A stretch of DNA of 64,000 bases from Bacteroidia bacterium. GTDB taxonomy: Bacteria; Bacteroidota; Bacteroidia; NS11-12g; UBA9320. Where the stretch lies: NCBI GenBank assembly GCA_049115575.1, contig JAGDZU010000004.1:252294-316293 (forward strand), given 5' to 3'. Position 1 is the first letter of the stretch. Each line of letters begins with the position of its first letter. The position numbers were made by a program, and so were the translations under genes. Below the pieces are notes generated by a model. The model did no database searches. It was not told the origin of the DNA and saw nothing but the letters and a program-made list of their open reading frames with translations. Below are positions 22,982-43,201 of this stretch, piece by piece.

Positions 22982-23203
22982 ATGAATTCTAAAAAGGTTC
23001 TATTGTTTCTTATTCTAAGCATTAGCATTGTTCCAAGCACATTTGCTTATCTAGACCCAGGTTCTGGAAGCTATATAGTGCAAATGATTATTGCCGGAAT
23101 ATTAGGTGGTTTCTATGCCCTTAAACTTTACTGGGTGCGAATAATGAATTTCTTTAAAGGTGCTCCTCAAGCTGATCCAGATGAGGAATTGAACAATGAG
23201 TAG
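22982..23203 (+). CDS. Small two-TM membrane protein (73 aa), translationally coupled to the downstream gene
   Basis: It has two hydrophobic helices and a conserved-looking DPGSGS loop. It overlaps the next start by 8 nt. Confidence 0.4.
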   Translation: MNSKKVLLFLILSISIVPSTFAYLDPGSGSYIVQMIIAGILGGFYALKLYWVRIMNFFKGAPQADPDEELNNE

Positions 23204-24560
23204 ACATCCGTCTTCTTTCCGGGATCCTTCAGGTTTTATATTTACTCAAGGTAGCCGTTTGCTCAGACAGATTAATGCTGTTGCCAAGACAGATTATGAT
23301 CTTATGATGAGCTCTGGCCTTTATGACTATTTAGTTAAAAAGGAATTGTTGGTTGCACATAAAGAAGTAGAAAACATTCATAGTGATGCTTATAAAACCT
23401 TAGAGCCCGATCATATTCCGTTCATTTCATACCCCTATGAATGGTCATTTGACCAGCTTAAAGACGCTGCACTCCTCACACTGAGAATTCAAAAAATTGC
23501 ACTTAAACACGGCATGACTTTGAAAGATTCTTCAGCTTATAATGTGCAGTTCTGTAAAGGCAAGCCAATCTTTATTGACAGCCTATCTTTTGAGAAATAC
23601 AAAGAAGGAAAACCTTGGGATGCATACAAGCAATTCTGTCAGCATTTTCTTGCTCCTCTTGCATTAGCCTCCTATAAAGATATTAGGTTGAACAAATTAA
23701 TGCAGACCTTTATTGATGGAGTCCCTCTGGATTTGGCTAGTACACTTTTGCCTTCAAGAACAAAACTAAAGTTCTCTTTCCTGAGCCATATTCATTGGCA
23801 TGCTAAAACTCAAGTAAAGCATGCGGATAAAGCAAAAGACCAAAAGAAGATTGCCAAAGTGAGCCAAACAGGTCTTTTGGGGATTATCAGCAATTTAAAA
23901 GGAACTATTGAAAAGTTAAGTTGGAATAGCGGCGATACCGAATGGGGAGACTATTACAATAACACCAACTATAGCGAAGGTTCATTTGAACAAAAAATGA
24001 TTATTATTCAAGAGTATTTAAATACACTTGAAGCAAAATCCCTATGGGATCTCGGAGCCAATGATGGCACTTTCAGTATGATTGCTGCCAATCTTGGCAT
24101 AGAGACCTTGGCTTGCGATATTGATCCTATTGCAGTTAACAAAAACTATTTAAAAGTTAAGAACGAAGGCATAACCAACATGCATCCTCTTTTAATGGAT
24201 TTGACCAATCCAAGTCCTGACTTGGGATGGGCGCATACAGAAAGAGACAGCCTTCAATCTCGTGGTCCTGCCGATTGTATTATGGCATTGGCATTAGTTC
24301 ACCACCTTGCCATTTCAAACAATCTCCCTATGGAACTCATAGCAACTTACTTTGGTAAACTAGGCAAACACCTCATCATTGAATTTGTACCTAAAGGAGA
24401 TTCCAAAGTTGATACACTTTTAAGTACCAGAGATGATATATTCCCTAACTACACCTACGAAGGTTTTGAGAAGGCCTTTTCATCCGTTTTTGACTTGATG
24501 GAGAAACGCTCCATTGATGGAAGTGATCGGACTTTATATCTTTACAAAACTCGAAGTTGA
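23196..24560 (+). CDS. Two-domain protein: N-terminal uncharacterised (possibly kinase-like) domain plus C-terminal class I SAM-dependent (PrmA-like) methyltransferase domain
   Basis: The C-terminal LWDLGANDGTFSMIAANLG...ACDIDPIAVN resembles motif I/II of PrmA-type methyltransferases. The N-terminal half has a D-x4-N ... IDS arrangement reminiscent of a kinase-like catalytic loop, which is speculative. Confidence 0.55.
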   Translation: MSRHPSSFRDPSGFIFTQGSRLLRQINAVAKTDYDLMMSSGLYDYLVKKELLVAHKEVENIHSDAYKTLEPDHIPFISYPYEWSFDQLKDAALLTLRIQKIALKHGMTLKDSSAYNVQFCKGKPIFIDSLSFEKYKEGKPWDAYKQFCQHFLAPLALASYKDIRLNKLMQTFIDGVPLDLASTLLPSRTKLKFSFLSHIHWHAKTQVKHADKAKDQKKIAKVSQTGLLGIISNLKGTIEKLSWNSGDTEWGDYYNNTNYSEGSFEQKMIIIQEYLNTLEAKSLWDLGANDGTFSMIAANLGIETLACDIDPIAVNKNYLKVKNEGITNMHPLLMDLTNPSPDLGWAHTERDSLQSRGPADCIMALALVHHLAISNNLPMELIATYFGKLGKHLIIEFVPKGDSKVDTLLSTRDDIFPNYTYEGFEKAFSSVFDLMEKRSIDGSDRTLYLYKTRS

Positions 24561-26104
24561 AACGCTTTTCATGGCATAGTATCTTTATCACGCTTTACTC
24601 GGTGGTCTTCTTATATGCCGAGAATATTAAATATGTAAAACTCGAAGACATTTACTCCCCTTTGTTATATGTATCATTGGGTGCCTTAGTTGTTTTTATA
24701 CTGGCATGGCTGGTGTATAGAAAAATTGTTAAAGCTGGAATAATAACCACCGTTCTTTTACTCCTATTCTTTAGTTATGGGCACTACCACGGTTTACTTT
24801 ACCCTCAACGCATTCCCGTAATCAATGTTCGATTTGACCACAATTTTTATAAATGGAGTAGCCTTATTATTTGTCTGTTTATGTTCTGGAGGTTGTGGCT
24901 CATCAAGTCAGACCAAAGAAAAACTAATAGCATATTAAACTTTGTTAGTCTGCTATTACTGGCGATGCCCGTTTATAAGATAATTGAGCATCAATTTGAT
25001 TTAAAAACAGACGTTCCATTTCAAAAAAAGACTGCGGTAGTAGAACATATAGATATTGAAACCAAGCCAAGTATATATTACTTGATTATGGATGCATATG
25101 GAAGAAATGATGTTTTGAAAGAGTTGTATGACTATGACAACAGCGAATTTACAGACTACCTCAAAGACAAAGGCTTTTTCGTTGCTGATCAAAGCTTTTC
25201 CAACTATAACAAAACCGTTCTTTCTATTCCATCATCAATGAACATGATGTACTTAGATTCAATAGCCGATGAATTGGGGCATCAGAGTGAGAATCAAACC
25301 CCTCTGCTTCAAATGATAGATAGAAACAGAACTGTAAATCAGTTGGATGCATTTGGCTATACTTCATTTGCATTTGATGCACCCATACTTCCTTACTTGT
25401 TTTTCGACTCAGCTGATTTGTTCTACGAAACACCTGGAGCTTACATCAATTTGTTCGAAAATGAACTCATTAACACATCTATCATTCGTGCGTTCAAGAG
25501 AAAAGAAGCTAAATCTTCCGTTGATCAATGGGAACATCACAGAAAAAAAATATTAACGGCTTTCGACAAAATTGAAGCCATAAGTAAGAGGGATGAGCCT
25601 TATTATGTTCACGGACACATACTTGCCCCTCATCAACCTTTTGTTTTTGGCGCGGAAGGAGAACCTCTCAACCCTGAGCACCACTACACATGTTGGATGC
25701 CTATAGAAGATGGACGTGATCCACAGGAATATCGCGAAGAATATATCGCCCAACTCAAGTTTATTAATAAGAAACTAATCCAGACTGTGGATGCCATCCT
25801 GGCCAATTCCAAGACAGATCCAATCATTATTATTCAAGGCGATCACGGGCCATGCGCAGAACTCACCAATACACAAACCATAGAGGGTAATAATTTTTTT
25901 GAGAGAATGCCTATAATAAATGCCTACTATTTCCCAGAAAAGAAATACTCTTCACTATACCCCTCAATTAGTCCCGTGAATACATTCAGAGTGGTATTTA
26001 ACCAATACTTCAATAAGAACTACAAACTTCTTCCAGACAGTTCCTTTTATTCCACTTGGAAGCATCACTATGATTTTGTGAATGTGACCGATAGTCTGAA
26101 TTAG
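24557..26104 (+). CDS. Membrane-anchored sulfatase-like hydrolase/transferase (alkaline-phosphatase superfamily, LTA-synthase/phosphoethanolamine-transferase-like)
   Basis: It has about 5 N-terminal TM helices followed by a sulfatase-fold domain (YYLIMDAYGRND ... HGHILAPHQPF ... IIIQGDHGP). It overlaps the upstream gene by 4 nt. Confidence 0.7.
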   Translation: MKRFSWHSIFITLYSVVFLYAENIKYVKLEDIYSPLLYVSLGALVVFILAWLVYRKIVKAGIITTVLLLLFFSYGHYHGLLYPQRIPVINVRFDHNFYKWSSLIICLFMFWRLWLIKSDQRKTNSILNFVSLLLLAMPVYKIIEHQFDLKTDVPFQKKTAVVEHIDIETKPSIYYLIMDAYGRNDVLKELYDYDNSEFTDYLKDKGFFVADQSFSNYNKTVLSIPSSMNMMYLDSIADELGHQSENQTPLLQMIDRNRTVNQLDAFGYTSFAFDAPILPYLFFDSADLFYETPGAYINLFENELINTSIIRAFKRKEAKSSVDQWEHHRKKILTAFDKIEAISKRDEPYYVHGHILAPHQPFVFGAEGEPLNPEHHYTCWMPIEDGRDPQEYREEYIAQLKFINKKLIQTVDAILANSKTDPIIIIQGDHGPCAELTNTQTIEGNNFFERMPIINAYYFPEKKYSSLYPSISPVNTFRVVFNQYFNKNYKLLPDSSFYSTWKHHYDFVNVTDSLN

Positions 26105-27371: not shown

Positions 27372-27467
27372 GCTTATGCCAAAGTTAAAGAAAAGAGCAC
27401 AGAAGGGAAAGAATATGATCTTTCAAGCTTAAAAACTAAAACGCTCTAAGCACGGAACTCGTTGAAA

Positions 27468-28196
27468 ATGATGATAATTGCAGTTCAAATGAATTCTTCT
27501 GATCACCCACATATTTTTTTCGATCTCGATCACACTTTGTGGGATTTTGAAGCCAATGCAGAGGCAACTCTTCGCGAATTGTATGATTATTACGACATAG
27601 TTAACAGAACAGATAGCTCCGTAGATGTATTCATTCAAACCTATAGCAGAGTTAATAATCGCTATTGGGCACTATACAGAAAGCAGCAAGTTAGCAAAGC
27701 TGACCTTCGTGTTCAACGCTTTACAGACACTTTCGCAGAAGTTGGGATAGAACGAGCAGATATTCCAAAAGGGATTTGGGAGCACTACATAGAAATATGC
27801 CCTACCAAGACCCAATTGATGGCCGGAGCAAAGGAAACGCTTGATTATTTGTCCCAAAACCACAAATTACATTTGATTACCAACGGATTTGAAGAGACAC
27901 AACACAGAAAGCTAAAGAATACCAAGCTTGAACAGTATTTTCAAAGTTTAACGATTTCTGAAGTGGTTGGGTCTCAGAAACCATCGCCCTATATATTTAA
28001 GCAAGCGCTGTTAAATGCAGGTTTAACTGCTGAAGAAAGCACCTATGTTGGTGATAATTTTGAAGCCGATGTTCAAGGGGGCATCAATGCTGGCTGGCAA
28101 GTTTTCTGGCTAAATGAGACTAATTCTCATCCCGATTTCACACACCCCAAACTGGTGCGAATTAAAAAACTCTTGGAACTCAAAAAGCACTTCTAG
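27468..28196 (+). CDS. HAD-superfamily hydrolase (YjjG-like noncanonical pyrimidine nucleotidase subfamily IA)
   Basis: HAD motif I is FFDLDHTLWD and motif III/IV is VGDNFEADVQG. The ATG at 27468 is preferred over the upstream TTG of the ORF track. Confidence 0.7.
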   Translation: MMIIAVQMNSSDHPHIFFDLDHTLWDFEANAEATLRELYDYYDIVNRTDSSVDVFIQTYSRVNNRYWALYRKQQVSKADLRVQRFTDTFAEVGIERADIPKGIWEHYIEICPTKTQLMAGAKETLDYLSQNHKLHLITNGFEETQHRKLKNTKLEQYFQSLTISEVVGSQKPSPYIFKQALLNAGLTAEESTYVGDNFEADVQGGINAGWQVFWLNETNSHPDFTHPKLVRIKKLLELKKHF

Positions 28197-30598: not shown

Positions 30599-32092
30599 TT
30601 AAGCTTTTTTGAGCCGGAATCTAATCAATTGCTTATCTATAAATTCATTGAACTCTAAAGAGAATTTGAACCAATAGCACAAGACAAAATAGATGAGACC
30701 AAAACTGCTTGAATACAACAATATATTCACTATAGTGTTAGGTGTTCTTGGCAGAACAGCCCAGATAAAGAACAATAGCCCAGCCAGCACAATATTGTAC
30801 AAGTTCTTCATCCTGAATGGCTGCATATTGAAAGCTCGTTTTATATATATGAGTTTTAGAATATTGTAAACCAAAATAGAGGCTATGGTGGCCATACTGC
30901 TTCCTTCTATGCCGTAGCGCGGAATGAGTATGAGGTTTAAGCCAATATTTAATACTACAGCAACAGATAAAAAACCCAACAGATATGGATATTTCTTAGA
31001 CATAGACAATATCTGATTGTTTACCCCTGAAGCCATATCTATTATTTTGGCTACACAGAGCATCCAAACCACGTTAATGCCCAAACGGTATTCATCTCCT
31101 CTAGGCATTAGATCAAATACATCTTTAATAATGAGCCAAAATGCGAGAAATATTCCCAGGGAAACTAACACCGATACAGCTGAAGATTGTTTGTAAATCC
31201 TTTTAATTCCCTCCTGATCGTTGTCTTTCCAATACTGCGAAATGATAGGTACTGAGATAGTGCTTATTAAAGTAAAAGGAACCGCAATGGCATTCGCAAT
31301 AAAAAGACTCCAGGCATACAGCCCGTTTTGATATGTTCCTACCATAGTGGTCACCATCAAGATGTCAATTTGATTTGCCAATGCTCCTCCAATGCCGCTT
31401 AGTACACTAAATCCTGCAAAAGCCACCATGGGTTTAAAATTTGGGTCTGCTTTTAAACTCGACCATGAAAACTTTGGCCTGAACTTATCTTGTGAGTTCA
31501 TGTAGTACAAAAACACAAGCGCAAGTACCAGATGATAAGCAAAGAGCAAAACAATAAGCTGATCAAACTTTATATAATCATAAAAGTAGGCTACGACGAA
31601 AGCGGGCAATGCAAACTTCAATAGCTGAATCAACAGCGAAGGGATTGCAATTCTTCCCTGTATAGCTGCATAGTTTCTTGCCAACCTCACATAGGGCAAA
31701 ATAGCCGCTATTCCAATGAGCACATAAACGGAAATGCGTGAAACACCCGATTTGCTTTCATAATAGTCAGCTATCCTAGCCTTGAAAAGTAAAAATATGG
31801 CAAGAAATACAAGGATATTCAATGTAACTGTGAGGTAAACCAAGCCATAGAATCGCTGTTTTGAAGCTTGATTATCTTTATACTGTGGATAGTATCTGGT
31901 TAGCACATAGCCAAATCCAAATACCAGAAATGGGGTAAAAAAAGTAGCCGTCTGCAGAACAAATTGTACCTCACCATACTGTTCTACGGTAAGCATATAG
32001 GGATAAATGAACAAATTGTTCAACACTCCCATCCCCAATCCTATATAGGTAGCAATTGCCGCTTTAAAGCTTTGCCTAGCCACTAATCCCAT
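30599..32092 (-). CDS. Polysaccharide biosynthesis protein / oligosaccharide flippase (MOP superfamily, Wzx-like)
   Basis: It has about 12-14 TM helices and is 497 aa. It is divergent from the glycoconjugate operon. Confidence 0.7.
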   Translation of the reverse strand: MGLVARQSFKAAIATYIGLGMGVLNNLFIYPYMLTVEQYGEVQFVLQTATFFTPFLVFGFGYVLTRYYPQYKDNQASKQRFYGLVYLTVTLNILVFLAIFLLFKARIADYYESKSGVSRISVYVLIGIAAILPYVRLARNYAAIQGRIAIPSLLIQLLKFALPAFVVAYFYDYIKFDQLIVLLFAYHLVLALVFLYYMNSQDKFRPKFSWSSLKADPNFKPMVAFAGFSVLSGIGGALANQIDILMVTTMVGTYQNGLYAWSLFIANAIAVPFTLISTISVPIISQYWKDNDQEGIKRIYKQSSAVSVLVSLGIFLAFWLIIKDVFDLMPRGDEYRLGINVVWMLCVAKIIDMASGVNNQILSMSKKYPYLLGFLSVAVVLNIGLNLILIPRYGIEGSSMATIASILVYNILKLIYIKRAFNMQPFRMKNLYNIVLAGLLFFIWAVLPRTPNTIVNILLYSSSFGLIYFVLCYWFKFSLEFNEFIDKQLIRFRLKKA

Positions 32093-32185
32093 TCCTACAA
32101 AAAAACGCAGGAAATCAATACCTTATTGGATTAGTTATCCAATAATACAAGCCTTATGTCTAAGCCTCCAATCTGCCAAAATGTT

Positions 32186-32193
32186 TACATTTG
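32186..32193 (+). promoter_or_regulatory. Candidate Bacteroidota sigma-A -7 element (TAcaTTTG) upstream of the sqdB-like operon
   Basis: It matches TAnnTTTG and sits about 20 bp upstream of the preferred ATG at 32214. Confidence 0.25.
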
Positions 32194-32213
32194 TACATCA
32201 TAAAAAGAAATAC

Positions 32214-33404
32214 ATGAAAATACTAATATTAGGAGGTGATGGATTCTGTGGATGGCCTACTGCATTGCATCTTTCTCAAAACGGATATGAGGTGGTAATT
32301 ATCGATAATTTATCGCGTAGAAACATTGATAATGAGCTTGGAATACAGTCTTTAACTCCTATTGCAACTATACAAGACAGGTTAGAAGCTTGGGAAGAAG
32401 TGAGCGGAAAAAAAATCAAGTTTTACAATTTTGATATTGCTTTGGAATATGACCGCTTAGTGGATGTGCTTCTAAAGGAAAAACCAGATAGTTTAGTTCA
32501 TTTCGCTGAGCAAAGAGCGGCTCCATATTCTATGAAGTCTAGCTGGCATAAGCGCTATACTGTGAATAACAATATAAATGCTACCAACAATGTACTCTGT
32601 GCCGTTCTTGACTCTGAATTAGATATTCATATTGTTCATCTTGGGACTATGGGTGTATACGGCTACAGTAGCACTGGAGCAAAAATTCCAGAAGGATACC
32701 TAGATATTTTCTTTAAAGATGATACTGGAAAGACTCACGAAAGCGAGATTCTTTATCCTGCAAATCCTGGGAGTGTTTACCATACCACTAAAACATTAGA
32801 TCAACTCTTATTTTATTACTACAATAAGAATGACAAGATTAGAGTTACAGACCTTCACCAAGGTATAGTTTGGGGAACCAATACGGAAGAAACCAAAATA
32901 GACGAACGTCTTATTAATCGTTTTGACTACGATGGTGACTACGGCACTGTGTTGAATAGGTTCTTAATGCAAGCAGCTATTGGTTATCCGCTAACTGTAT
33001 ATGGAACAGGAGGGCAAACAAGAGCTTTTATTCATATACAAGATACAGTTAAATGTGTTAGAATTGCTATTGAAAATCCACCTGAAAAAGGAGAGAGAGT
33101 TAAGATATTCAATCAAACCACTGAAACACATAAGGTAATTGACTTAGCTAATAAGATTAATGAAATCACCGGTGTTGAAATCAAGACTATTGAAAATCCG
33201 AGAAACGAGGCTATCGAAAACGATTTAATAGTTGAAAATAAGAACTTTCTTGGTTTAGGTCTTAATCCAATCAAGCTTTCAGAAGGTCTATTGGAAGAAG
33301 TCACAGCAATTGCTAAGAAATACGCAGACCGCTGCGATCCAAAATATATTGCACCTCGATCTTTTTGGGTAAAAAAGAACAAGGAGTATGCCTCAAAGGG
33401 ATAA
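32214..33404 (+). CDS. sqdB: UDP-sulfoquinovose synthase-like NAD-dependent epimerase/dehydratase (SQD1/SqdB/Agl3 family)
   Basis: The N-terminal Rossmann segment ILILGGDGFCGWPTALHLSQNGYEVVIIDNLSRR and the downstream ...LGIQSLTPIATIQDRL are close to plant/cyanobacterial SQD1. A YHTTK (Y-H-x2-K) catalytic motif is present, and the His after the Tyr is SQD1-specific. Length and domain order match. Confidence 0.75.
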   Translation: MKILILGGDGFCGWPTALHLSQNGYEVVIIDNLSRRNIDNELGIQSLTPIATIQDRLEAWEEVSGKKIKFYNFDIALEYDRLVDVLLKEKPDSLVHFAEQRAAPYSMKSSWHKRYTVNNNINATNNVLCAVLDSELDIHIVHLGTMGVYGYSSTGAKIPEGYLDIFFKDDTGKTHESEILYPANPGSVYHTTKTLDQLLFYYYNKNDKIRVTDLHQGIVWGTNTEETKIDERLINRFDYDGDYGTVLNRFLMQAAIGYPLTVYGTGGQTRAFIHIQDTVKCVRIAIENPPEKGERVKIFNQTTETHKVIDLANKINEITGVEIKTIENPRNEAIENDLIVENKNFLGLGLNPIKLSEGLLEEVTAIAKKYADRCDPKYIAPRSFWVKKNKEYASKG

Positions 33405-34410
33405 ACCCTTAGTAAGTATAATTGGATCTGTTTACAATGGGGAACAGCATCTAGCTGAAACCCTTGAAAGTCTCAGAGCACAAGACTACTCAAATTTTGA
33501 AGTCATTATTGTAAATGACGCTTCTACAGATGACAGCCTATCTATCATAGAGAGCTATTGCCTAGAAGATGAGCGATTTAGGTTCATAACCAATACCAAC
33601 AACGAAGGTCCAGCAGCCAAAAACAAAGCTATAGAAGCAGCTAAAGGAGAGTTCATTGCCGTTTTCGATGCGGATGATATCTATGCCAAAAGTCGTATAA
33701 GTGAGCAAGTTAAGTTTATGGAAAAGAGACCTGAGCTACTTGCCAGCTCTTGTCAAGCCATCAAATTTGAAGGACAGCAAGGTCTTTTGTGGAATTACCT
33801 TTCACCCTCCTTGCTAAAAGCCTTTGCCTTTATCAATATGCCGCTTGTTCACCCCTCCATTATTTATAGGGCAAGCGTATTCAAAGAATTGAACTTGAGA
33901 TATGATGCACCTATTCGCTTTGTTCAAGATTATGATTTGGTTTTCAGATTATCTCAGCAAGGAGCTATAGCAAATCAGGCTAAGGTACTCATGCTATACA
34001 GAAGACATGACACTCAAGTCACTTCAGGGGAAAAAATGTCTTATGTTCAAAGGGCATATGATCATCTATATCAACTAAAATCAAGGCAATTAGGACAACT
34101 CATAAACGATTTGAACAAAAAACAAATCGATTTGTTTATCGCATTCTGTTTCAATGACTTAGAAAGTGTAGACATAACAGAAATGGAAAATTTTCTGCTT
34201 AAAATAGTAAGGGCTTATCCAGATTCTAACAGTATGGGCAAAGTGGTAGCTCAGCACCGTTTGCATCAACTTAAAAAAAGTGGAATAGCTCATCTGTTTA
34301 AACACAGCATGAATAGTCCAATTTTAAGTTTAAGAGATGTATTTGCCTACCTGAATAAGGAGGTGATGAAAAAGCTATTTATGCACACTAAAGCCAAACG
34401 CTATATTTAA
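33388..34410 (+). CDS. Family 2 glycosyltransferase
   Basis: The GT-A N-terminus is VSIIGSVYNGEQHL...VIIVNDASTDDS, with a DAD motif at FDADD. Confidence 0.75.
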   Translation: MPQRDKPLVSIIGSVYNGEQHLAETLESLRAQDYSNFEVIIVNDASTDDSLSIIESYCLEDERFRFITNTNNEGPAAKNKAIEAAKGEFIAVFDADDIYAKSRISEQVKFMEKRPELLASSCQAIKFEGQQGLLWNYLSPSLLKAFAFINMPLVHPSIIYRASVFKELNLRYDAPIRFVQDYDLVFRLSQQGAIANQAKVLMLYRRHDTQVTSGEKMSYVQRAYDHLYQLKSRQLGQLINDLNKKQIDLFIAFCFNDLESVDITEMENFLLKIVRAYPDSNSMGKVVAQHRLHQLKKSGIAHLFKHSMNSPILSLRDVFAYLNKEVMKKLFMHTKAKRYI

Positions 34411-34452
34411 GCTTGATAATTCTCCTTATTTATTGAGCCTCAGTAGATAAAT

Positions 34453-35349
34453 TTGCATGTGCCTAAAGTTTTAAGCATTGCCATTTGCACCTACAACAGA
34501 CCTGAGCTGCTTCAGCACTGTCTGGATGCTATTTACCCGCAGCTAACAGATGAGGTGGAGCTAATTGTGGTTGACAATGGAACCACTAAAGTTGAAGAAC
34601 TGTGTAATGCATTTGAAAATCTCACTTACGTCACAGAAGACCATACTGGTTTATCATTTGCTAGAAATACTGCAATCCGCCAAAGCTCAGGACAATACTT
34701 ACTATACCTAGATGATGATGCCAAAGCTGATTCAAACTTTGTACAGATTGCACTTGATAGTTGCAAAACGGGCTACAAAGTCTTTGGAGGAGTCTATCTC
34801 CCTTGGTATCACTACGGTCAACCAAAATGGTTTAAAGATGAATATGCTTCCAATAGAATGAAATATACTAGCACAACTGCGCTGAGTAAGGGCGAATACT
34901 TGAGTGGTGGTGTCATGTGCATTAAGAAAGAAATTTTTAAACAAATTGGAGAATTCAAAACAGATATAGGTATGCGCGGTAGCATAGTTGGCTATGGAGA
35001 AGAATCCGAATTGCAAGATAGGATGAGGGCACAGAACATAAAACTAATATATGAGCCTACATTGCTCATTTCACATGTTGTTGCACCTTATAAACTTGAA
35101 GTTAAGTGGTTTCTTGATTCAGCCTTTAATAGAGGTATTGATATGGCCAAATACAGAAAGGGTGATCCTACTTGGGCTATAATTAGAGAATCAATGATTG
35201 CGTTTACTCTTTTATGTAAGGATGCCTTAGTGAATGGCATTAAATACTTACTCAACAAAAGTTACTACAAAGAGAATTGGCACATAGATACATACCGAAA
35301 GTTTTACAAGCGAAAGGGATATATTTACCAGATAATAAATGATCAGTAA
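34453..35349 (+). CDS. Family 2 glycosyltransferase
   Basis: The GT-A N-terminus is LSIAICTYNRPELL...LIVVDNGT, with a DxD at LDDDA. Confidence 0.75.
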   Translation: MHVPKVLSIAICTYNRPELLQHCLDAIYPQLTDEVELIVVDNGTTKVEELCNAFENLTYVTEDHTGLSFARNTAIRQSSGQYLLYLDDDAKADSNFVQIALDSCKTGYKVFGGVYLPWYHYGQPKWFKDEYASNRMKYTSTTALSKGEYLSGGVMCIKKEIFKQIGEFKTDIGMRGSIVGYGEESELQDRMRAQNIKLIYEPTLLISHVVAPYKLEVKWFLDSAFNRGIDMAKYRKGDPTWAIIRESMIAFTLLCKDALVNGIKYLLNKSYYKENWHIDTYRKFYKRKGYIYQIINDQ

Positions 35350-35974
35350 TAAACAGACCATACTCATATTAGCTCCTCATACAGATGATGGAGAATTTGG
35401 TTGCGGAGCGTCAATTCACAAATGGATAACAGAGGGTAAAACCGTCTATTACGCCACATTTTCTGCATGCAAACAATCTGTGCTTCCTCAGTTTCCTGAA
35501 GATATATTAATCACTGAAGTCAAAGCTGCAACTGCGGAACTTGGTTTACCGCAGGAGAATTTAATCCTCTATGATTATGCGGTAAGAACTTTTAATTATC
35601 ACAGGCAAGCAATACTTGATGACTTAATAAAACTCCGAGAACAGATTAAACCAGACCTAGTTTTAATGCCGTCTCCGAATGATATTCACCAAGACCATAA
35701 GACGATTATGGAGGAAGGGCTTCGTGCCTTTAAATTCACCAGTATTCTCTGCTATGAGATGCCTTGGAATAATCTAAATTTCAATACTAGCTGCTTTAGT
35801 ATATTGGATGAGGAACATGTGGAAGTTAAACTAAATGCACTTCGCAAATATGAATCACAGGCACACAGACCTTATGCAGACGAAACATTTATCAAAGGTT
35901 TGGCAAGAGCAAGGGGTGTGCAGATTAATTCACATTATGCAGAAGTCTTTGAGGTCTTGAGATGGATCATCTAA
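35339..35974 (+). CDS. PIG-L/LmbE-family N-acetylglucosaminyl deacetylase
   Basis: The zinc-binding signature is AHTDDGEFGCG ... HQDH. It is about 210 aa and overlaps its neighbours on both sides. Confidence 0.75.
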   Translation: MISNKQTILILAPHTDDGEFGCGASIHKWITEGKTVYYATFSACKQSVLPQFPEDILITEVKAATAELGLPQENLILYDYAVRTFNYHRQAILDDLIKLREQIKPDLVLMPSPNDIHQDHKTIMEEGLRAFKFTSILCYEMPWNNLNFNTSCFSILDEEHVEVKLNALRKYESQAHRPYADETFIKGLARARGVQINSHYAEVFEVLRWII

Positions 35975-37002
35975 AGAACACTCATATCTTAGTTACTGGA
36001 GGTGGAGCACCTGGAGCAGTAGGCATTATTAAAGCCCTTAATCGAGCTGGTTATCACAATATCAGTTGCTCAGATGTAAACAAAAAAGTAGCGGGAAGCA
36101 TACTTGCCAATGATTCTTTTCAATTGCCATATGGTACTGATCCAGATTACACAGACATATTATTAAAAGAATGTAAGACAAGAGACATAGATCTTATTTT
36201 ACCTATCACAACCAAAGAGCTTTTGGCGGTGAGTCGCATAAAAAGTAAACTGGCAGATGTAGGTTGTAATACAGTGGTAAGCCCAATTGAAAGCCTGAAA
36301 ATATCAAACGATAAAGGAGCTCTATACACCCATCTAAAAGATTCAGGAATAACAGTACCCAAACACCGAATAGTTCAAAATATTGAGGAGTTTGAAAATG
36401 CGCTTGAAGCATTTGATCAAGGAGAAGCCTTTACATTCAAACCTTGTGTATCTAATGGAAGCAGAGGATTTAGAATTATTGACCCATCAATAGATGAATT
36501 TGATTTATGGTTGAATCAGAAGCCCAACAATGCATATGTTACTAAGGAAGAAGCTCTATCCATCCTTAAAAAGGGGCCTATGCCTCCACTGCTTTTTAGC
36601 GAATATCTAGAGGGCGAAGAATACTCCGTTGATTGTTTAATTCACAAGGGTGAGATAAAACTGATTATACCTCGAAAACGAATCAATATAAATAATGGAA
36701 TTAGTGTAGAAGGGCTCATTGAAAACAACAAAACAGTAATCGATTACTGCACACAAATTCTAGAAAGCCTTGAGTTAGATGGGCCGATAGGAATTCAAGT
36801 GAAGTACAAAGGAAACCAACCCTTGATTTTGGAGATTAATCCAAGATTACAAGGAAGTTCCACTTCTTGCATAGGAGCGGGAATTAATTTACCACAATTA
36901 GCTATAGAAAATGCTTTAGGAAAACAGCCTAATAAAACTCAAAACGATATAAAATGGGGCACTCATTTTGTTCGTCATTATGAAGAGATCTACTATAAAT
37001 GA
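35962..37002 (+). CDS. ATP-grasp-domain ligase (CPSase-L/PylC-like amide-bond-forming enzyme)
   Basis: It has an N-terminal Rossmann-like pre-ATP-grasp segment (ILVTGGGAPGAVGIIKAL) and a central ATP-grasp fold ending in an ...EINPRLQGS-type motif. Confidence 0.7.
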   Translation: MDHLKNTHILVTGGGAPGAVGIIKALNRAGYHNISCSDVNKKVAGSILANDSFQLPYGTDPDYTDILLKECKTRDIDLILPITTKELLAVSRIKSKLADVGCNTVVSPIESLKISNDKGALYTHLKDSGITVPKHRIVQNIEEFENALEAFDQGEAFTFKPCVSNGSRGFRIIDPSIDEFDLWLNQKPNNAYVTKEEALSILKKGPMPPLLFSEYLEGEEYSVDCLIHKGEIKLIIPRKRININNGISVEGLIENNKTVIDYCTQILESLELDGPIGIQVKYKGNQPLILEINPRLQGSSTSCIGAGINLPQLAIENALGKQPNKTQNDIKWGTHFVRHYEEIYYK

Positions 37003-38279
37003 AGAAATTACTCATCATATGCTATTATTGGCCTCCAAGTGGAGGAGCGGGGGTTCAGCGCTGGCTGAAACTCAGTGATTATATAGCTAAAGCGGGAGTT
37101 GAAGTCTTTATCATTCACCCAAAAAGTAGCAAAGCCAGTTACTTGACTCTTGATGAGAGTTTGGTTCATGAAATCAATCCCAATATTCATACTATGGAAA
37201 CCAATTCCTTTGAACCTTTGAATTGGTATAAAAGAATAGTAGGTAAGAAAAATGTACCAACGGCAGGAATGTCTAATGTAAATCCCAAAAGCAAATTACA
37301 GTCACTTGCTTTGAGGTTAAGAAGCACCTTGTTCATTCCAGATCCAAGGAAGTATTGGTTAAAACATGCCTATAAAGCAGCTGTGGAACTCATCAGCAAG
37401 CATGAGATTTCACATGTTATCACCTCTTCCCCACCTCATTCTGCTCAACTCATTGGCTTGCGCTTAAGACAAAATCTAAACATACATTGGATTGCCGATC
37501 TTCGCGATTTATGGACTGGCATCTACTACTACGACCTGCTTCAGCACACAACAAGATCAAGAGCTAAAGATGCAAAACTGGAATTAGAAGTATTGCAGAG
37601 AGCAGACCATATTACCACAGTGAGCCCTTTGTTTAAAGATGAATTTAAGCAAATCGCTCAATGTGATTCTTCTAAAATTAGTGTGATTCCAAATGGGTTC
37701 GACCCCAAGGATTTCAACTCATTTAATTACCTTAAAGAGGTTGAATTCACTATAACCTATACAGGTAGTATCAGTTCACAATACAATATTTCTCCATTCA
37801 TAGAGGCCTTAAAGAGTTTCAATGAAGCAGGTAAAAATTTCAAATTGAGATTTGTTGGCTCCGTAGACCCTGGCATAAAGGAGCGTTTTGCTAAGGAAGG
37901 GATGTCAACATCTGTTGAGTTTACAGGCTATGTTCAGCACGATGAGTCCATTTCTTACTTAGAAGATTCTTATGCATTACTCCTAATTGGCCCGTTGAAT
38001 GAAGATCAAAACGAAGGCAGTGTTCCTGCCAAGCTTTTTGAATATCTCGCTGCCAAGAGACATATCATTTATATAGGTAAAACAGATGGATTTGTAGCTC
38101 AAATACTTCGCGATTGTGCAGCGGGTAGCACATTTGAAAACGCAAAGGATTTACTGCTTCACTTACAGGAATTGTCTTCTAAACATGAAGCAAATAACAA
38201 TCCTCAGATTGAATCAAAAGGGATAGATACTTATTCCAGAATAAATCAGGCCGAAGAGTTCCTCAAATTATTAGCTTAA
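36999..38279 (+). CDS. Glycosyltransferase (GT-B fold, GT4-like)
   Basis: It has an N-terminal GT-B acceptor domain with the WPPSGGAGVQ motif and a C-terminal donor-binding domain with the E..E motif. It overlaps the ATP-grasp stop. Confidence 0.55.
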   Translation: MKKLLIICYYWPPSGGAGVQRWLKLSDYIAKAGVEVFIIHPKSSKASYLTLDESLVHEINPNIHTMETNSFEPLNWYKRIVGKKNVPTAGMSNVNPKSKLQSLALRLRSTLFIPDPRKYWLKHAYKAAVELISKHEISHVITSSPPHSAQLIGLRLRQNLNIHWIADLRDLWTGIYYYDLLQHTTRSRAKDAKLELEVLQRADHITTVSPLFKDEFKQIAQCDSSKISVIPNGFDPKDFNSFNYLKEVEFTITYTGSISSQYNISPFIEALKSFNEAGKNFKLRFVGSVDPGIKERFAKEGMSTSVEFTGYVQHDESISYLEDSYALLLIGPLNEDQNEGSVPAKLFEYLAAKRHIIYIGKTDGFVAQILRDCAAGSTFENAKDLLLHLQELSSKHEANNNPQIESKGIDTYSRINQAEEFLKLLA

Positions 38280-38349
38280 TCCAAGCTCACTTTATGCCTA
38301 AAACAAGCGGTAATTTCATATTATTGAAAGCCAATAGCGTTTCAAATTC

Positions 38350-40767
38350 ATGAAGGAACTTTTTCAACAATATAAAATACATCTAATCATTCTTTTAGCC
38401 ATCTGTGCTATTTCATTTGCCTATGTACCAGAGGTGCTAGATGGGAAGATCTTAGCACAAGGTGACATCACACAATACAAAGGGGCTGCCAAAGAAATTA
38501 TTGACTATAGAGACAATGGTGAACGTATTCTTTGGACCAATTCTCAATTCTCGGGTATGCCAACCTACCAAATTAGTGGAGTAGCTGGCGAGAGTCCAAT
38601 GAAGTATTTGAGAATTCCTAAGAAGCCTCTCACCTGGGAAAAGTTATTTCTTCTCCTCTTCTGTTCCTATCTCATGTTTCTTTCGTTCAGAATAAAACCC
38701 TGGATAGCCTTGGTTGGTGCTGTGGGCATGGCCTTTGTTACTGGAAACATGACAGTTATAGAAGCTGGGCATAACACCCAAGCATTAGCCATAGCATATG
38801 CACCACTTATTATAGGAGGGGTCCAGTATTTGTTCCGGAGAAAGTGGCTTGTCGGTTTTAATATGGTAGCCATAGGCATGGCACTTCAACTGGTTGTGAA
38901 CCACGTTCAAATAAGTTATTATACAGGAATCATCATAGGTATTTGGATGGTATTCCAGTTAGTATGGCATATACAGAAGAAAGAGATTAAGCATTTCTTA
39001 ATGGTTGCTGGAATTGCGCTTGCGGGGGTAGTAATAGCTGTAGGTGCAAACTCCTTGAATTTAATGCTTACTAAGGAGTATTTAGACCACACAATTAGAG
39101 GGAAATCCGAAATTACTATAGACCAATCAGCTCAAGAAAAAGCGGAAGCTCCAAGTGATGGTTTGGCACGCTGGTACGCTTTCCAATGGAGTAATGGCTG
39201 GGATGATGTAGCCGCTATGTTTATTCCCAATTATGCCGGTGGAGGTGCCAAAACAGGCTTGTACTATGGTGCGCTTCCATTTACATCCGGACCTCAATAC
39301 ATGGGCATGGCCATTATATTTCTTTGCATTCTCGGATTTATTGGTGTAAAAGATCGAAGTAAATGGTGGATCCTAACAGCTGTTTTATTGGCGGTTGCCT
39401 TGTCTATGGGTAAGAACAATTTTGTCTGGCTCAACGACTTCTTCTTTGAAAATGTGCCGTTCTATAATAAGTTTAGAGCCCCTACAATGGCACTGACCAT
39501 AGTTCAATTATGTCTGCCAATAATGGCTGTATTTGCCTTAAATGATTTTATAGAGAATCAGGACAAAGAAGCTCAATGGAAAGCTTTAAAATTTACTGGA
39601 ATTGGAGTAGGAGCCTTTTTAATCATACTTACCTTTTTCAGCGGAAGCTTTAACGATTTTAAAACACCGAGAACTATAGACCCAGTAAGTGGTCAAGTTC
39701 TAGAAGATCGAGATCAACAAACCGCAGATCGCTATAAAGTACCAGTGGATCAATTCTGGGCTCAAGTGGTGCCTCAAAGAATAGAGCTCATGAAGAAAGA
39801 TGGCTATAGAAGCATCTTCTTTGCTGCAGCTATCTTTGTTCTATTGTGGTTGTATTATAAAGGCAATCTTAACAGCAAACTCACCATAGCCTTAGTAGGC
39901 GTCTTTATTCTAATTGACTTCTGGGGGGTAGACAAGCGATACCTTGCCAGCGAAAACTTTAAGACTCCCAGACAAATTGAAGGAGAGGTATCTCCTTCTA
40001 GGGCTGACATGGCTATAATGCAAGACAAGTCTTATTACAGAGTCTTGGATCTTACAGAGAGTACCATGAGAAGTTCTAGAGCATCTCATTTCCATAAGTC
40101 AATAGGTGGCTACAATGCTGCAAAACTCAGAAGGTATCAGGAATTATTTGATTGGTATATCTATGACGAATTGAATAAGGGTAAAATCATGGAGAGTAAT
40201 TTATTAAACATGCTTAACATGAAATATGTAACCTACCCGGTAAAAGACAAAGAGATGCAATATGCTGTGAATCCTAATGCCAACGGGAACGCCTGGTTTG
40301 TGAGTAATATTAAACAGGTTAAAGATGCCAACGAAGCCATAGTTGCTATGGCAGACTTAAACACCAAATCAACAGCATTGATTGAACAGAAATTTTCAAA
40401 TCAAATCAGTGCGACATCATTTGATGTTGACAGCGCAGCAAACATTGTTCTGAAAACCTACCACCCAGAAGAACTGGTTTATGAATCAAATAGTTCAAAA
40501 GACGGATTTATTGTTTTCTCTGAGATATACTACCCAGACGGTTGGAACGCTTATGTAGATAATCAAAAGGTAGATCATGCACAGGTTGACTTTGTTCTAA
40601 GAGGACTATTTGTAAATGCCGGTAAACATGAAATCAAGTTTAAGTTTGAACCTACAACTTACACCAAGGGAAGAACTATATCCCTGGCATCTAGTGGTAT
40701 TATTTATCTTGTACTAGCAGCTTCCTTATTTATTGGAATAAGGAAAGAGCTCAAGAGCAAAGCATGA
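38350..40767 (+). CDS. YfhO-family polytopic membrane protein (putative glycosyl/glycolipid transferase)
   Basis: It is 805 aa with more than 12 TM helices in the N-terminal two-thirds and a C-terminal extracytoplasmic domain, matching YfhO family architecture. It overlaps the holB start. Confidence 0.75.
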   Translation: MKELFQQYKIHLIILLAICAISFAYVPEVLDGKILAQGDITQYKGAAKEIIDYRDNGERILWTNSQFSGMPTYQISGVAGESPMKYLRIPKKPLTWEKLFLLLFCSYLMFLSFRIKPWIALVGAVGMAFVTGNMTVIEAGHNTQALAIAYAPLIIGGVQYLFRRKWLVGFNMVAIGMALQLVVNHVQISYYTGIIIGIWMVFQLVWHIQKKEIKHFLMVAGIALAGVVIAVGANSLNLMLTKEYLDHTIRGKSEITIDQSAQEKAEAPSDGLARWYAFQWSNGWDDVAAMFIPNYAGGGAKTGLYYGALPFTSGPQYMGMAIIFLCILGFIGVKDRSKWWILTAVLLAVALSMGKNNFVWLNDFFFENVPFYNKFRAPTMALTIVQLCLPIMAVFALNDFIENQDKEAQWKALKFTGIGVGAFLIILTFFSGSFNDFKTPRTIDPVSGQVLEDRDQQTADRYKVPVDQFWAQVVPQRIELMKKDGYRSIFFAAAIFVLLWLYYKGNLNSKLTIALVGVFILIDFWGVDKRYLASENFKTPRQIEGEVSPSRADMAIMQDKSYYRVLDLTESTMRSSRASHFHKSIGGYNAAKLRRYQELFDWYIYDELNKGKIMESNLLNMLNMKYVTYPVKDKEMQYAVNPNANGNAWFVSNIKQVKDANEAIVAMADLNTKSTALIEQKFSNQISATSFDVDSAANIVLKTYHPEELVYESNSSKDGFIVFSEIYYPDGWNAYVDNQKVDHAQVDFVLRGLFVNAGKHEIKFKFEPTTYTKGRTISLASSGIIYLVLAASLFIGIRKELKSKA

Positions 40768-41876
40768 GATTCGCAGATATACCAGGGCAAGAGGAGATAA
40801 AAGCTAAATTGGTTAGCAGCATTAAAGAGGAGAGAATTCCTCATGCTCAATTATTTCTCGGCCCCGAAGGAAGTCACAATCTCAGTTTAGCAATTGCATG
40901 CATACAAATGATGTATTGCTCTCAACCTTTAGAAGATGATTCCTGTGGAAGCTGTAGCTCCTGCTCCAAAATCAGCAAGCATATGCATCCAGATGTGCAT
41001 TACAGCTACCCAACAGCAGGTGCAAAGCAAATAAGCACTACCTACATTAATGAGTGGAGGCAAATGTTGTCTGAACATCCTTTAATGAATGCAAGTGACT
41101 GGATGGCAAAAATTGCCAAAGACGAGAACAAAACACCAAATATCACAAGAGAAGAAAGTAGAGATATACTTTCCAAACTCAGTCTTAAACCATTTGAGGG
41201 AGAAGCCAAAGCTCTTATCATTTGGATGCCTGAGTATCTGGATAAGATTGGAAACAGCTTACTCAAGATTATTGAAGAACCACCTCAACGCACTTTTTTC
41301 ATACTAGTAGCTCATCAGTTCGATGCTATTTTACCTACTGTTAGCAGCAGAACTCAACTGGTGAAAATTGGTACTTATCAGAATGAAGAGCTAGTAGGTC
41401 ACTTAAGAGAACGCTATGATTTGGAACAAGCCAAAGCTGAGAACATAGCATTTCTAGCTGATGGTAATATGAGGGAAGCAGTAATGATGGTTGAAGAGGT
41501 AGACGACAATTATTCTGAACTTTTCAGAAAAATGATGTTGGCCTGCTATCAAAATGATTTGAGCACAGTAAGCAAGTTTACAGATGAATTAGCTCGTTTA
41601 GGACGCAATCAAATACAGCTTTATCTCCAAAATGGTTTGAAGATTCTTAGAGAAACTTTGTTGTATAAAAGCATTGATGATTACGAAATAAAATTTGTAG
41701 GTGAATACAAAGATTTCATTCGAAACTTTTCAAGCACTATGAATGCAAAGCTGATAGAAGAAAGCTATCGATCCATCAATGAAGTCATCTATCATATTGG
41801 CAGAAATGCTAATGCTAAAATCTCACTCTTTAATCTATCTTTGGCCCTCAGACATAATTTCATCAGAAAAAGATAA
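40764..41876 (+). CDS. holB: DNA polymerase III subunit delta-prime
   Basis: It is AAA+-like with a degenerate Walker A (LFLGPEGSHN), a zinc module CGSCSSCSKISKHMHPDVHY, and a SRT sensor motif. Confidence 0.8.
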   Translation: MRFADIPGQEEIKAKLVSSIKEERIPHAQLFLGPEGSHNLSLAIACIQMMYCSQPLEDDSCGSCSSCSKISKHMHPDVHYSYPTAGAKQISTTYINEWRQMLSEHPLMNASDWMAKIAKDENKTPNITREESRDILSKLSLKPFEGEAKALIIWMPEYLDKIGNSLLKIIEEPPQRTFFILVAHQFDAILPTVSSRTQLVKIGTYQNEELVGHLRERYDLEQAKAENIAFLADGNMREAVMMVEEVDDNYSELFRKMMLACYQNDLSTVSKFTDELARLGRNQIQLYLQNGLKILRETLLYKSIDDYEIKFVGEYKDFIRNFSSTMNAKLIEESYRSINEVIYHIGRNANAKISLFNLSLALRHNFIRKR

Positions 41877-41890
41877 GTCAAAGAGAACTA

Positions 41891-43201
41891 ATGAGTTGCG
41901 GAAGTTGCGGAAAGAATAATGGGACACATAGTCCAGGTTGTGGTCAGAATGGTGACTGCAGCACTGGTAGTTGCAATAAACTCAATGTATACAATTGGTT
42001 GTCTGACATGATCCTCCCAGAGGATTATGTTCCTTTCAATATAGTTGAAGTAAGGTTTAAAGGGAGTAAGAAACTGTTCTTCAGAAATCACGACAACCTG
42101 GAACTGTTTACAGGAGATAAAGTTGTTGTTGAATCTGATTTTGGATACGATGTAGGAACCATTTCACTCAGCGGTGAATTGGTAAAACTTCAGTTGAAAA
42201 AATACGGAGTAGATGAAAACAGTGCTGAAATGCGTAAAATTCTGCGCATAGCAGGAGAAAAAGAACTAGAGAAATACCAAGAAATCAAAGATCGTGAGCC
42301 TAAAACATTGGAAAGAGCAAGAACCATTGCTATGAAAATGAATCTCAAGATGAAGATTAGCGATATGGAATTTCAAGGGGATGGGAAGAAAGTCACTTTC
42401 TATTATACCTCAGAGGGTCGCGTTGATTTTAGAGAGTTGATTAAGAGATATGCTTCTGAATTCAGATCAAGAATAGAAATGAGGCAAGTGAGTTACCGAG
42501 AAGAAGCTTCTAGATTAGGTGGTATTGGTAGTTGTGGAAGGGAGTTATGTTGCAGCACCTGGCTTACTGATTATAAAGTAGTAAGTATGAGTGCAGCAAA
42601 GACTCAAAACCTATCTATTAACATGCTAAAGCTTTCCGGGCAGTGTGGTAGGTTGAAATGTTGTCTCAATTATGAATTGGAGTTGTATACCGAAGCTTTG
42701 GCAGAATTTCCAAGAGATGATGTGCGACTTAAGACCGAAGCAGGCGAGGCATCTCTCAAGAAAATAGATATTCTAAAAGGAACTCTATGGTATTCATATG
42801 AAAAGAGTTTTGATTGGATTCCAATTAAGCTTGACAGAGTTAATGAGATTATTGCCAAGAACAAGAAAGGCGAAAAACCTGCTACTCTTAGCGACACTGC
42901 TAAAGGTGCCGAGATTCTCAATAAATCACTTGAATACAAAGATGATTTGCTAGAATCTTCTGACCTTACTCGAATGGACCATAAGAAGGACCATGGCCGA
43001 TCTAAGGGTAGAGGTAGAAGAAAAGGTGCACCGTCTAAACGCAGAAGACCGCAACAGACCAAGAAGACAGAAGGCGCTGATGGTAATCCTCAAGCTAATA
43101 GAGGCGGTAACAAATCAAATCGAAGTAATAAAAATCGAAACCAGAACAGGAATCGAAATAGAAATCAAAACAAGGGCAACCAAAACAAGCCCAAGGACTA
43201 A
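41891..43201 (+). CDS. PSP1-domain protein (YaaT/RicT-like) with a Cys-rich N-terminus and a basic N/R/Q-rich low-complexity C-terminal tail
   Basis: The PSP1 C-terminal conserved region is GSCGRELCCSTWL ... GQCGRLKCC. It lies immediately downstream of holB, as in Firmicutes. Confidence 0.75.
   Translation: MSCGSCGKNNGTHSPGCGQNGDCSTGSCNKLNVYNWLSDMILPEDYVPFNIVEVRFKGSKKLFFRNHDNLELFTGDKVVVESDFGYDVGTISLSGELVKLQLKKYGVDENSAEMRKILRIAGEKELEKYQEIKDREPKTLERARTIAMKMNLKMKISDMEFQGDGKKVTFYYTSEGRVDFRELIKRYASEFRSRIEMRQVSYREEASRLGGIGSCGRELCCSTWLTDYKVVSMSAAKTQNLSINMLKLSGQCGRLKCCLNYELELYTEALAEFPRDDVRLKTEAGEASLKKIDILKGTLWYSYEKSFDWIPIKLDRVNEIIAKNKKGEKPATLSDTAKGAEILNKSLEYKDDLLESSDLTRMDHKKDHGRSKGRGRRKGAPSKRRRPQQTKKTEGADGNPQANRGGNKSNRSNKNRNQNRNRNRNQNKGNQNKPKD

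Follow-up and report, generated by a model that had tools for sequence, protein, structure and literature searches.

What could a sugar deacetylase and an ATP-grasp ligase have to do with each other, when the gene of one starts inside the gene of the other? The question is raised by a locus of an uncultured marine Bacteroidia bacterium (assembly GCA_049115575.1), of which a stretch of 64,000 nucleotides (nt) was analysed (contig JAGDZU010000004.1, positions 252,294 to 316,293 of the forward strand; hereafter the window, whose own numbering is used throughout). The two genes, at 35339..35974 and 35962..37002 (both +), encode a PIG-L/LmbE-family protein and an ATP-grasp protein. We found that they form a real, conserved, fairly widespread and uncharacterised two-gene module, in which a known biochemical logic is carried by an undescribed combination of enzymes; literature searches for the pairing of PIG-L/LmbE with ATP-grasp, both in general and in connection with YfhO, O-antigen or Bacteroidetes, found no paper in the library searched. 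We lean, if only slightly, towards regarding the pair as a cassette that swaps the N-acyl group of a sugar in the cytoplasmic part of the assembly of an envelope glycan.

The deacetylase and ligase genes

The protein encoded at 35339..35974 (211 amino acids, aa) is by its domain and motifs a member of the PIG-L/LmbE superfamily of zinc N-deacetylases, and its predicted reaction is the hydrolysis of a sugar N-acetyl group, here proposed to be that of an N-acetylhexosamine (HexNAc). It matched PF02585 over residues 9-129 with 62.2 bits (gathering 28.2, E 9e-17). The metal-binding and catalytic motifs PHTDDGE (H14, D16, D17) and HQDH (H117, H120) were intact, aligned with AHADDVE and HPDH of BC1534 (PDB 2ixd) and were invariant in an alignment of 16 homologues. 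The subfamily is large: 7,966 of 8,000 scored candidates passed E <= 0.001, and in a protein search the identity still stood at 67-72% at the foot of the 120 matches listed, which included the Cytophagales isolate Tellurirhabdus. Membership of BshB was rejected, since TIGR04001 (BshB1) scored 55.1 against a cutoff of 182.5 and TIGR04000 (BshB2) 27.8 against 195.25; no MshB or Mca match was obtained among the NCBIfam models.

The second protein (35962..37002; 346 aa) is a member of the ATP-grasp carboxylate-amine/thiol ligase superfamily by its domains, three-domain fold and motif, and we propose that it would re-acylate the freed sugar amine. Its matches to PF15632 (107.8 bits), PF02655 (64.3) and PF21360 (34.8) were all over gathering. 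K160 and the residues E291, N293 and R295 of its E-x-N-x-R motif (EINPR) were invariant in 20 homologues; the latter three are equivalent to E288, N290 and R292 of biotin carboxylase. An AlphaFold2 model (pLDDT 90) was compared with the PDB by Foldseek, which gave a probability of 1.00 to many ATP-grasp structures. The top match was 2pn1, followed by the pyruvate and biotin carboxylase domains, the L-amino-acid ligases RizA and BL00235, PurT and PurK. The protein in 2pn1, a 'carbamoylphosphate synthase large subunit (split gene)' of Exiguobacterium, is the nearest solved structure (Foldseek E 6e-23, TM 0.75-0.83; phmmer E 1e-10), but it shares only 18% sequence identity with the window ligase and its own function is uncharacterised.

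Homologues of the ligase are named carbamoyl-phosphate synthase (CPSase) large subunit at JGI. This assignment was rejected, as TIGR01369 scored 27 against 1027 and a 346-aa protein with a single ATP-grasp unit stands against a duplicated architecture of ~1050 aa. The best NCBIfam neighbour was PRK12767 'CPSase-like protein', and all cutoffs were missed (143 vs 390; 135 vs 218). No TupA-like ATP-grasp family was present among the Pfam matches of the ligase at E<=0.01. An exact look-up of the window ligase in the assemblies gave no record, and its genomic context was taken from homologues.

Both genes belong to a set of four co-directional genes, encoding a GT2 glycosyltransferase, PIG-L, ATP-grasp and a GT4-family glycosyltransferase, whose ends overlap by 11, 13 and 4 nt. 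The open reading frame map and the raw sequence place the PIG-L ATG at 35339 (ATGATCAGTAA) within the GT2 codons AAT GAT CAG TAA (overlap of GT2 stop and PIG-L start, 35339..35349, +), and the ATP-grasp ATG at 35962 within the Arg-Trp codons of PIG-L (agATGGatcatcTAA), 13 nt ahead of the PIG-L stop (overlap 35962..35974, +). At 36999-37002 the sequence ATGA couples the ATP-grasp stop to the GT4 start by 4 nt. A preliminary description of this DNA had recognised an LmbE-type deacetylase translationally coupled, through overlaps with its neighbours, to a ligase of the ATP-grasp rather than the BshC or MshC type; the coupling of the ligase to GT4 was no part of it. The Pfam matches and intact motifs bear out both identities, and the reading frames bear out the coupling, whose recurrence elsewhere is described below. 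From co-translation that description inferred sequential action on one substrate, and the two enzymes may act in this way. Across the same pairs of genomes with syntenic loci, PIG-L orthologues were 76-89% identical and the ATP-grasp proteins only 48-54%; judged by these identities, the ligase is the faster-evolving partner and the deacetylase subfamily the better conserved one.

Conservation of the pair and exchange of its second member

If the ligase acts on the product of the deacetylase, then what follows this deacetylase in other genomes should be informative. A metagenome scan seeded with the PIG-L alignment gave 80 loci with 52-77% identity to the window protein, of which 66 extend for 500 nt or more beyond the deacetylase gene. 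In these 66, the gene that follows on the same strand encoded an LbH/hexapeptide acyltransferase of ~300 aa in 21 cases, an ATP-grasp protein of the window ligase's family in 11, WbqC-like proteins in 7, GNATs in 3 and FabH-like enzymes in 2. Thus an acyl-installing enzyme or a candidate for one stood directly downstream of PIG-L in 44 of 66 loci, and in 37 of those 44 the chemistry of its family, acyl transfer or amide formation, is established, the WbqC-like proteins being set apart because their function is not established. Of the 80 loci, 20 had an ATP-grasp protein anywhere within 6 kb. LbH, GNAT and FabH-type enzymes acylate amines. Because such enzymes fill the slot that the ATP-grasp protein fills in the window, the simplest reading is that the latter acylates the same deacetylase-generated sugar amine, with ATP and a free acid instead of an acyl-coenzyme A (acyl-CoA) or an acyl carrier protein (acyl-ACP) thioester. 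The pattern fits a cassette that removes an acetyl group and installs another N-acyl group. It also gives comparative backing, by conservation of the pair and replacement within the slot, to the core logic of the preliminary description, in which an N-acetyl sugar is deacetylated and an amide is then formed on it.

Individual look-ups agreed with this: an LbH acyltransferase came after PIG-L in Wzy/Bac_transf/DegT clusters, and elsewhere PIG-L was convergent with GT4 and YfhO. The WbqC-like proteins (PF08889) that directly follow PIG-L (L114, L139, L149, L158, L160, L165 and L167) are, by position alone, candidates for a further N-acylating class; a literature search on WbqC yielded nothing on function. 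In two loci (L089/L090, 8001-16198) PIG-L is the first gene of a cluster that also encodes a flippase, a hexapeptide acetyltransferase, Wzy and several GT4s. One gene of this cluster bears faint FemAB and weak Acetyltransf_6 Pfam marks and loosely recalls VimE/VimA, with PIG-L replacing CE4. Five other loci (L131, L133, L136, L145 and L147, ~6600-8800) carry a NusG/UpxY-like gene, PIG-L and then a membrane protein of ~700 aa that weakly matches PMT_2 (GT-C); here an ATP-grasp homologue lies 2.7 kb upstream of PIG-L, past accA and an NMO/FabK-like gene.

The linkage was also followed from the side of the ligase. A genome scan with the ATP-grasp alignment found relatives in 357 species-level genomes, 80 loci were fetched and 2 were added from look-ups, and their neighbours were censused by BLASTP. 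PIG-L lay directly upstream of ATP-grasp in 20 loci; 57 had no PIG-L, glycosyltransferase or YfhO within 10 kb, and 5 were too short to classify, which leaves 77 informative loci. One of those counted as unlinked, L055, does have PIG-L, which lies one gene ahead of ATP-grasp. Of the 20 adjacent loci, 19 have the ligase start codon (mostly ATG) inside the last PIG-L codons, usually at the same R-W position, and this recurrence argues that the association of the two genes is beyond chance.

The ligase tree (midpoint-rooted neighbour-joining, BLOSUM62 distances, without bootstrap or other branch support) separated two clades. Clade 1 comprised the window together with every YfhO/holB-linked locus, and throughout it the ligase is PIG-L-coupled. 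In clade 2 the PIG-L-linked loci L036, L055 and L040 were basal, and the unlinked group was nested inside as one clade. If this topology holds, it would suggest that the linkage is ancestral and was lost once, as opposed to 57 independent events.

The pair stayed together in four or more contexts that are unrelated to one another, with the gene order shuffled around it. Within clade 1 it stands before GT4, after YfhO, or after holB and ahead of PSP1, always a few genes from YfhO. Elsewhere the order was PIG-L, ATP-grasp, HAD beside UbiD, with no glycosyltransferase nearby (L086-88); PIG-L, ATP-grasp, HAD, GT4 (L040); or GT4, PIG-L, ATP-grasp, HAD (L122). In L141 and L166 the pair lies in DegT-carrying clusters (with Bac_transf also in L166) and is followed by a PHP phosphoesterase. 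The preliminary description had looked to co-occurrence across genomes, and had taken a ligase found without the deacetylase in most genomes as speaking against a shared substrate. On raw adjacency counts this opposing outcome is what was found, as 57 of the 77 informative genomes (74%) have the ligase unlinked within 10 kb; if the topology of the tree is right, they stand for a single loss.

A HAD hydrolase gene often follows the ATP-grasp gene and frequently overlaps it (L040, 2123-2767; L086, 9747-10361; L087/L088, 9684-10289; L023, 11025-11672; L055, 11025-11618), and L120-123 likewise have ATP-grasp and then HAD. The PHP phosphoesterase, which is non-homologous to HAD, occupies the same place in L141 (7652-8377) and L166 (2454-3104). 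The presence of a HAD or PHP protein after the ligase in several unrelated contexts is a hint that, in the lineages concerned, one of the substrates of the ligase carries a phosphate. In the window, no phosphatase is present directly downstream of the ligase. At L023 a protein with the first domain of the type IX secretion 'plug' (PF17116; 8699-9997) ends 3 nt before ATP-grasp, which HAD then follows; a single locus, it gives no more than a hint of a link to type IX secretion. Directly upstream of the lone ATP-grasp gene of L081 lie a class-V aminotransferase and a D-2-hydroxyacid dehydrogenase (7807-9930; SerC/SerA-like, phosphoserine-forming), which may point to phosphoserine as a substrate or may be no more than chance synteny of housekeeping genes.

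A proposed N-acyl swap and the alternatives to it

The cluster around the pair contains an SQD1-like synthase, two GT2s, a GT4, a YfhO-type GT-C and a divergent Wzx-like flippase, and an envelope glycan is therefore a likelier product than a low-molecular-weight thiol. In the order of steps that we propose, the PIG-L protein would hydrolyse the N-acetyl group of a HexNAc unit in a glycan precursor, whose carrier is possibly a nucleotide sugar or an undecaprenyl-linked intermediate from the neighbouring GT2 and GT4 enzymes. The ATP-grasp protein would activate a free carboxylic acid as an acyl-phosphate, the candidates being amino acids and small acids that may carry a phosphate (such as phosphoserine or phosphoglycerate), and would join it to the exposed amine; the hexosamine would then be N-aminoacylated or N-acylated. 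The glycan, which possibly contains sulfoquinovose, would be completed by the GT2 and GT4 enzymes; the Wzx-like protein would flip the finished product, and the YfhO-type GT-C would transfer it to an acceptor outside the cytoplasm.

Successive removal and replacement of an N-acyl group is familiar from lipid A synthesis, where the sugar N-deacetylase LpxC is followed by LpxD, an N-acyltransferase that adds a different acyl group. The LbH acyltransferases replacing ATP-grasp in the sister loci recall LpxD; however, LpxC has an unrelated fold, and there are no lipid A genes in the window cluster. In the Wbp/Vim pathway of Porphyromonas gingivalis and Tannerella forsythia, whose genes lie beside a GT4, serine or glycine is proposed to take the place of an N-acetyl group that is removed from a sugar, and VimE and VimA of P. 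gingivalis make 2-N-seryl-3-N-acetylglucuronamide (PMC7468200). This is likewise a Bacteroidota envelope pathway, and its order of deacetylase, acylating enzyme and GT4 (VimF) is mirrored in the window. VimE is a CE4 esterase and VimA is GNAT/FemAB-like (PMC7468200), whereas the window encodes PIG-L and ATP-grasp. The families differ, so homology to VimE/VimA was ruled out and the two systems are analogous.

If the pair does swap N-acyl groups, glycan clusters would follow a modular rule, in which a conserved PIG-L combined with an interchangeable N-acylating enzyme sets the acyl or aminoacyl decoration of an amino sugar, and the ATP-grasp family annotated as 'CPSase-like' would gain its first concrete role. 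In oral pathogens, the cargo of type IX secretion is attached to N-aminoacyl sugars, and a second, non-homologous route to such sugars would interest that field.

Several observations weigh against this explanation. The Foldseek neighbours of the ligase are generic and give no substrate clue. Among the cluster genes scanned (30599-43201), no gene for an initiating phosphoglycosyltransferase was identified. An ATP-grasp enzyme of a glycan pathway can instead activate a sugar carboxylate, as Cj1438C does when it amidates glucuronate. Of the 77 loci of ATP-grasp orthologues, 57 (Chitinophagaceae-type) are unlinked and lie among housekeeping genes, so that the substrate of the ligase may not depend on this deacetylase. 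The loci censused are not phylogenetically independent. The unlinked loci, which include that of the cultured Flavisolibacter nicotianae, share a UbiD, ATP-grasp, TraB/GumN arrangement. In L015, L028 and ~50 other Chitinophagaceae loci, a UbiD-family decarboxylase, ATP-grasp and TraB/PrgY/GumN lie near position 10000 amid NDK, DHH, FKBP and MR_MLE, with no glycan genes nearby.

The activation of a sugar carboxylate leads to the alternative that survives best, which we nevertheless regard as unlikely. Here the growing glycan would contain a uronic acid, whose C6 carboxylate the ATP-grasp protein would activate and couple with an amine from outside the glycan. This amine may be phosphorylated (ethanolamine-P, serinol-P or phosphoserine, for example); the product would be trimmed by a phosphatase, and PIG-L would act independently on a neighbouring HexNAc. 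There is precedent in the HS:2 capsule of Campylobacter jejuni, where the C-terminal ATP-grasp domain of Cj1438 forms an amide on a sugar of the growing surface polysaccharide, joining glucuronic acid to serinol-P or ethanolamine-P, and Cj1435 afterwards removes the phosphate (PMC11800379). The relatives of the pair, in clade 2 and in the metagenomic loci, are in like manner often followed by a HAD or PHP phosphoesterase, and the GT2 at 34453 has the glucuronosyltransferase AglG as its best, weak NCBIfam match. However, Cj1438C is TupA-like, activates the sugar carboxylate and is accompanied by no deacetylase, whereas the window ligase matches PF15632/PF02655 and falls outside the TupA-like family. 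The cluster genes scanned showed neither a UDP-glucose dehydrogenase nor a gene for uronic acids, and the ligase of the window lacks a phosphatase after it. A uronamide would also leave unexplained why the ligase starts inside the stop region of the deacetylase and why acyl-CoA/ACP-dependent N-acyltransferases take the same slot elsewhere.

Alternatively, the coupling may involve no shared chemistry at all, the overlap being inherited packing in one lineage and the ATP-grasp protein a housekeeping enzyme unrelated to the deacetylase. The 57 Chitinophagaceae-type loci with ATP-grasp alone among housekeeping genes speak for this, and the clade-1 synteny beside holB, PSP1, recR and uppP could be purely vertical. 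Adjacency, however, recurs in several unrelated contexts with the order shuffled around an intact pair, the junction is conserved in 19 of 20 adjacent loci, and linked loci are basal to the unlinked clade in the tree, which carries no support values. We consider this account rather improbable.

The preliminary description had set the pair in the frame of thiol and aminoglycoside chemistry. In mycothiol and bacillithiol synthesis, a PIG-L/LmbE deacetylase frees the C2 amine of a GT4-made N-acetylglucosamine (GlcNAc) glycoside, and an ATP-dependent ligase adds an amino acid. By extension, a GT4 could add GlcNAc to a phosphorylated small acceptor, and a phosphatase, PIG-L and an ATP-grasp protein standing in for MshC/BshC could yield an amino-acyl-GlcN-X such as a novel thiol or compatible solute. 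The superfamily of the deacetylase is indeed common to MshA/B/C, BshA/B/C and the window; L040 and L122 carry PIG-L, ATP-grasp, HAD and GT4, a formal match to the MshA/MshA2/MshB/MshC steps; L086-88 have PIG-L, ATP-grasp and HAD without membrane or flippase genes nearby; and all four enzymes look cytoplasmic by eye. On the other hand, the ligase is an ATP-grasp protein, as opposed to the class-I aminoacyl-tRNA-synthetase-like MshC or to BshC, PIG-L falls far under the BshB1 and BshB2 cutoffs and matches neither MshB nor Mca, and the GT4s of the window and of the L040 type are not homologous to one another. No BshA or MshA model among NCBIfam matched the window GT4 or the GT4s of L040 and L081; the best, weak matches of the window and L040-type GT4s were glycosyltransferases of lipid-linked glycans (such as PglJ, PglH and stp3). 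The window pair sits among GT2s, GT4, GT-C and flippase, a context that points to a membrane-linked glycan and not to a soluble thiol, and the same PIG-L subfamily occurs in O-antigen-like clusters with Wzy, Bac_transf and DegT. A soluble glucosamine conjugate is thus quite improbable, and the thiol/aminoglycoside framing should give way to the more likely N-acyl remodelling of an envelope glycan. That the pair, GT4 and phosphatase, as in L040 and L122, make a soluble aminoacyl-glucosamine resembling mycothiol or bacillithiol, with ATP-grasp replacing MshC/BshC, we find very doubtful; if a soluble conjugate were made, it would be a previously unknown redox buffer or solute in Chitinophagales-related Bacteroidota. 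Membership of the bacillithiol or mycothiol pathways themselves was rejected on the score of the deacetylase, the type of GT4 and the family of the ligase.

Genes surrounding the pair

The pair lies in a packed co-directional run (32181-43201) of an SQD1-like SDR, two GT2s, PIG-L, ATP-grasp, GT4, a YfhO-type GT-C, holB and a PSP1-domain gene. The run is headed by a homologue of UDP-sulfoquinovose synthase (32181..33404, +; 407 aa), which matched Arabidopsis SQD1 (1i24) over its full length with E 1.4e-101 and scored 353.8 bits with NF041015, under the cutoff of 575. Based on this gene, sulfoquinovose may occur in an envelope glycan of Bacteroidia. It is 98% identical in the syntenic locus L001, where the adjoining genes are 68-93% identical. 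Two GT2 glycosyltransferases follow, one at 33388..34410 (+; 340 aa; PF00535, E 1e-32) and one at 34453..35349 (+; 298 aa; PF00535, E 4e-19), the latter with orthologues in several related loci. The GT4 downstream of the pair (36999..38279, +; 426 aa) matched PF13439, PF13579, PF00534 and PF13692 and adjoins YfhO in most clade-1 loci; a sequence search of the PDB with it found no relatives.

The YfhO-type GT-C membrane glycosyltransferase (38350..40767, +; 805 aa) is the candidate transferase of the finished glycan to its acceptor. Its match to PF09586 (43.9 bits vs 28.5) is for the best stretch only, at the C-terminal end (residues 697-778). In all clade-1 loci whose sequence is long enough, the gene lies no more than a few genes away from the pair. 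In a July 2026 preprint, YfhO is predicted to be the missing O-oligosaccharyltransferase of a phylum-wide protein O-glycosylation system of Bacteroidota. If this prediction is correct, the cluster would build a protein O-glycan, and a cluster beside a YfhO-type GT-C offers a compact, testable locus for the proposal. The YfhO gene overlaps holB (DNA polymerase III delta') by 4 nt (38350-41876, +), and the glycan genes thus run directly into the housekeeping genes holB and PSP1. In relatives, holB even lies between YfhO and the PIG-L/ATP-grasp pair.

Upstream of the run, on the opposite strand, is a Wzx/MOP-type polysaccharide flippase (30599..32092, -; 497 aa; PF01943), which is transcribed divergently and has weak Wzx-like and HfsF matches. 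The guanine-plus-cytosine (GC) content was 0.355-0.406 throughout the window, and its uniformity rules out a horizontally acquired island. The promoter and terminator scan of the window, with a consensus unsuited to Bacteroidota, gave 30 promoter-like sites (35.3 expected) and 12 terminator-like ones (7.4 expected), and no operon boundary is marked by any of these sites.

Further upstream, two adjacent open reading frames without a significant Pfam family overlap by 4 nt, at 23196-24560 (+; 454 aa) and 24557-26104 (+; 515 aa). The former gave only a weak methyltransferase signal (E 0.0014), and the latter shows hydrophobic N-terminal segments by eye. A HAD protein, different from those that follow the ligase in other loci, is encoded at 27462-28196.

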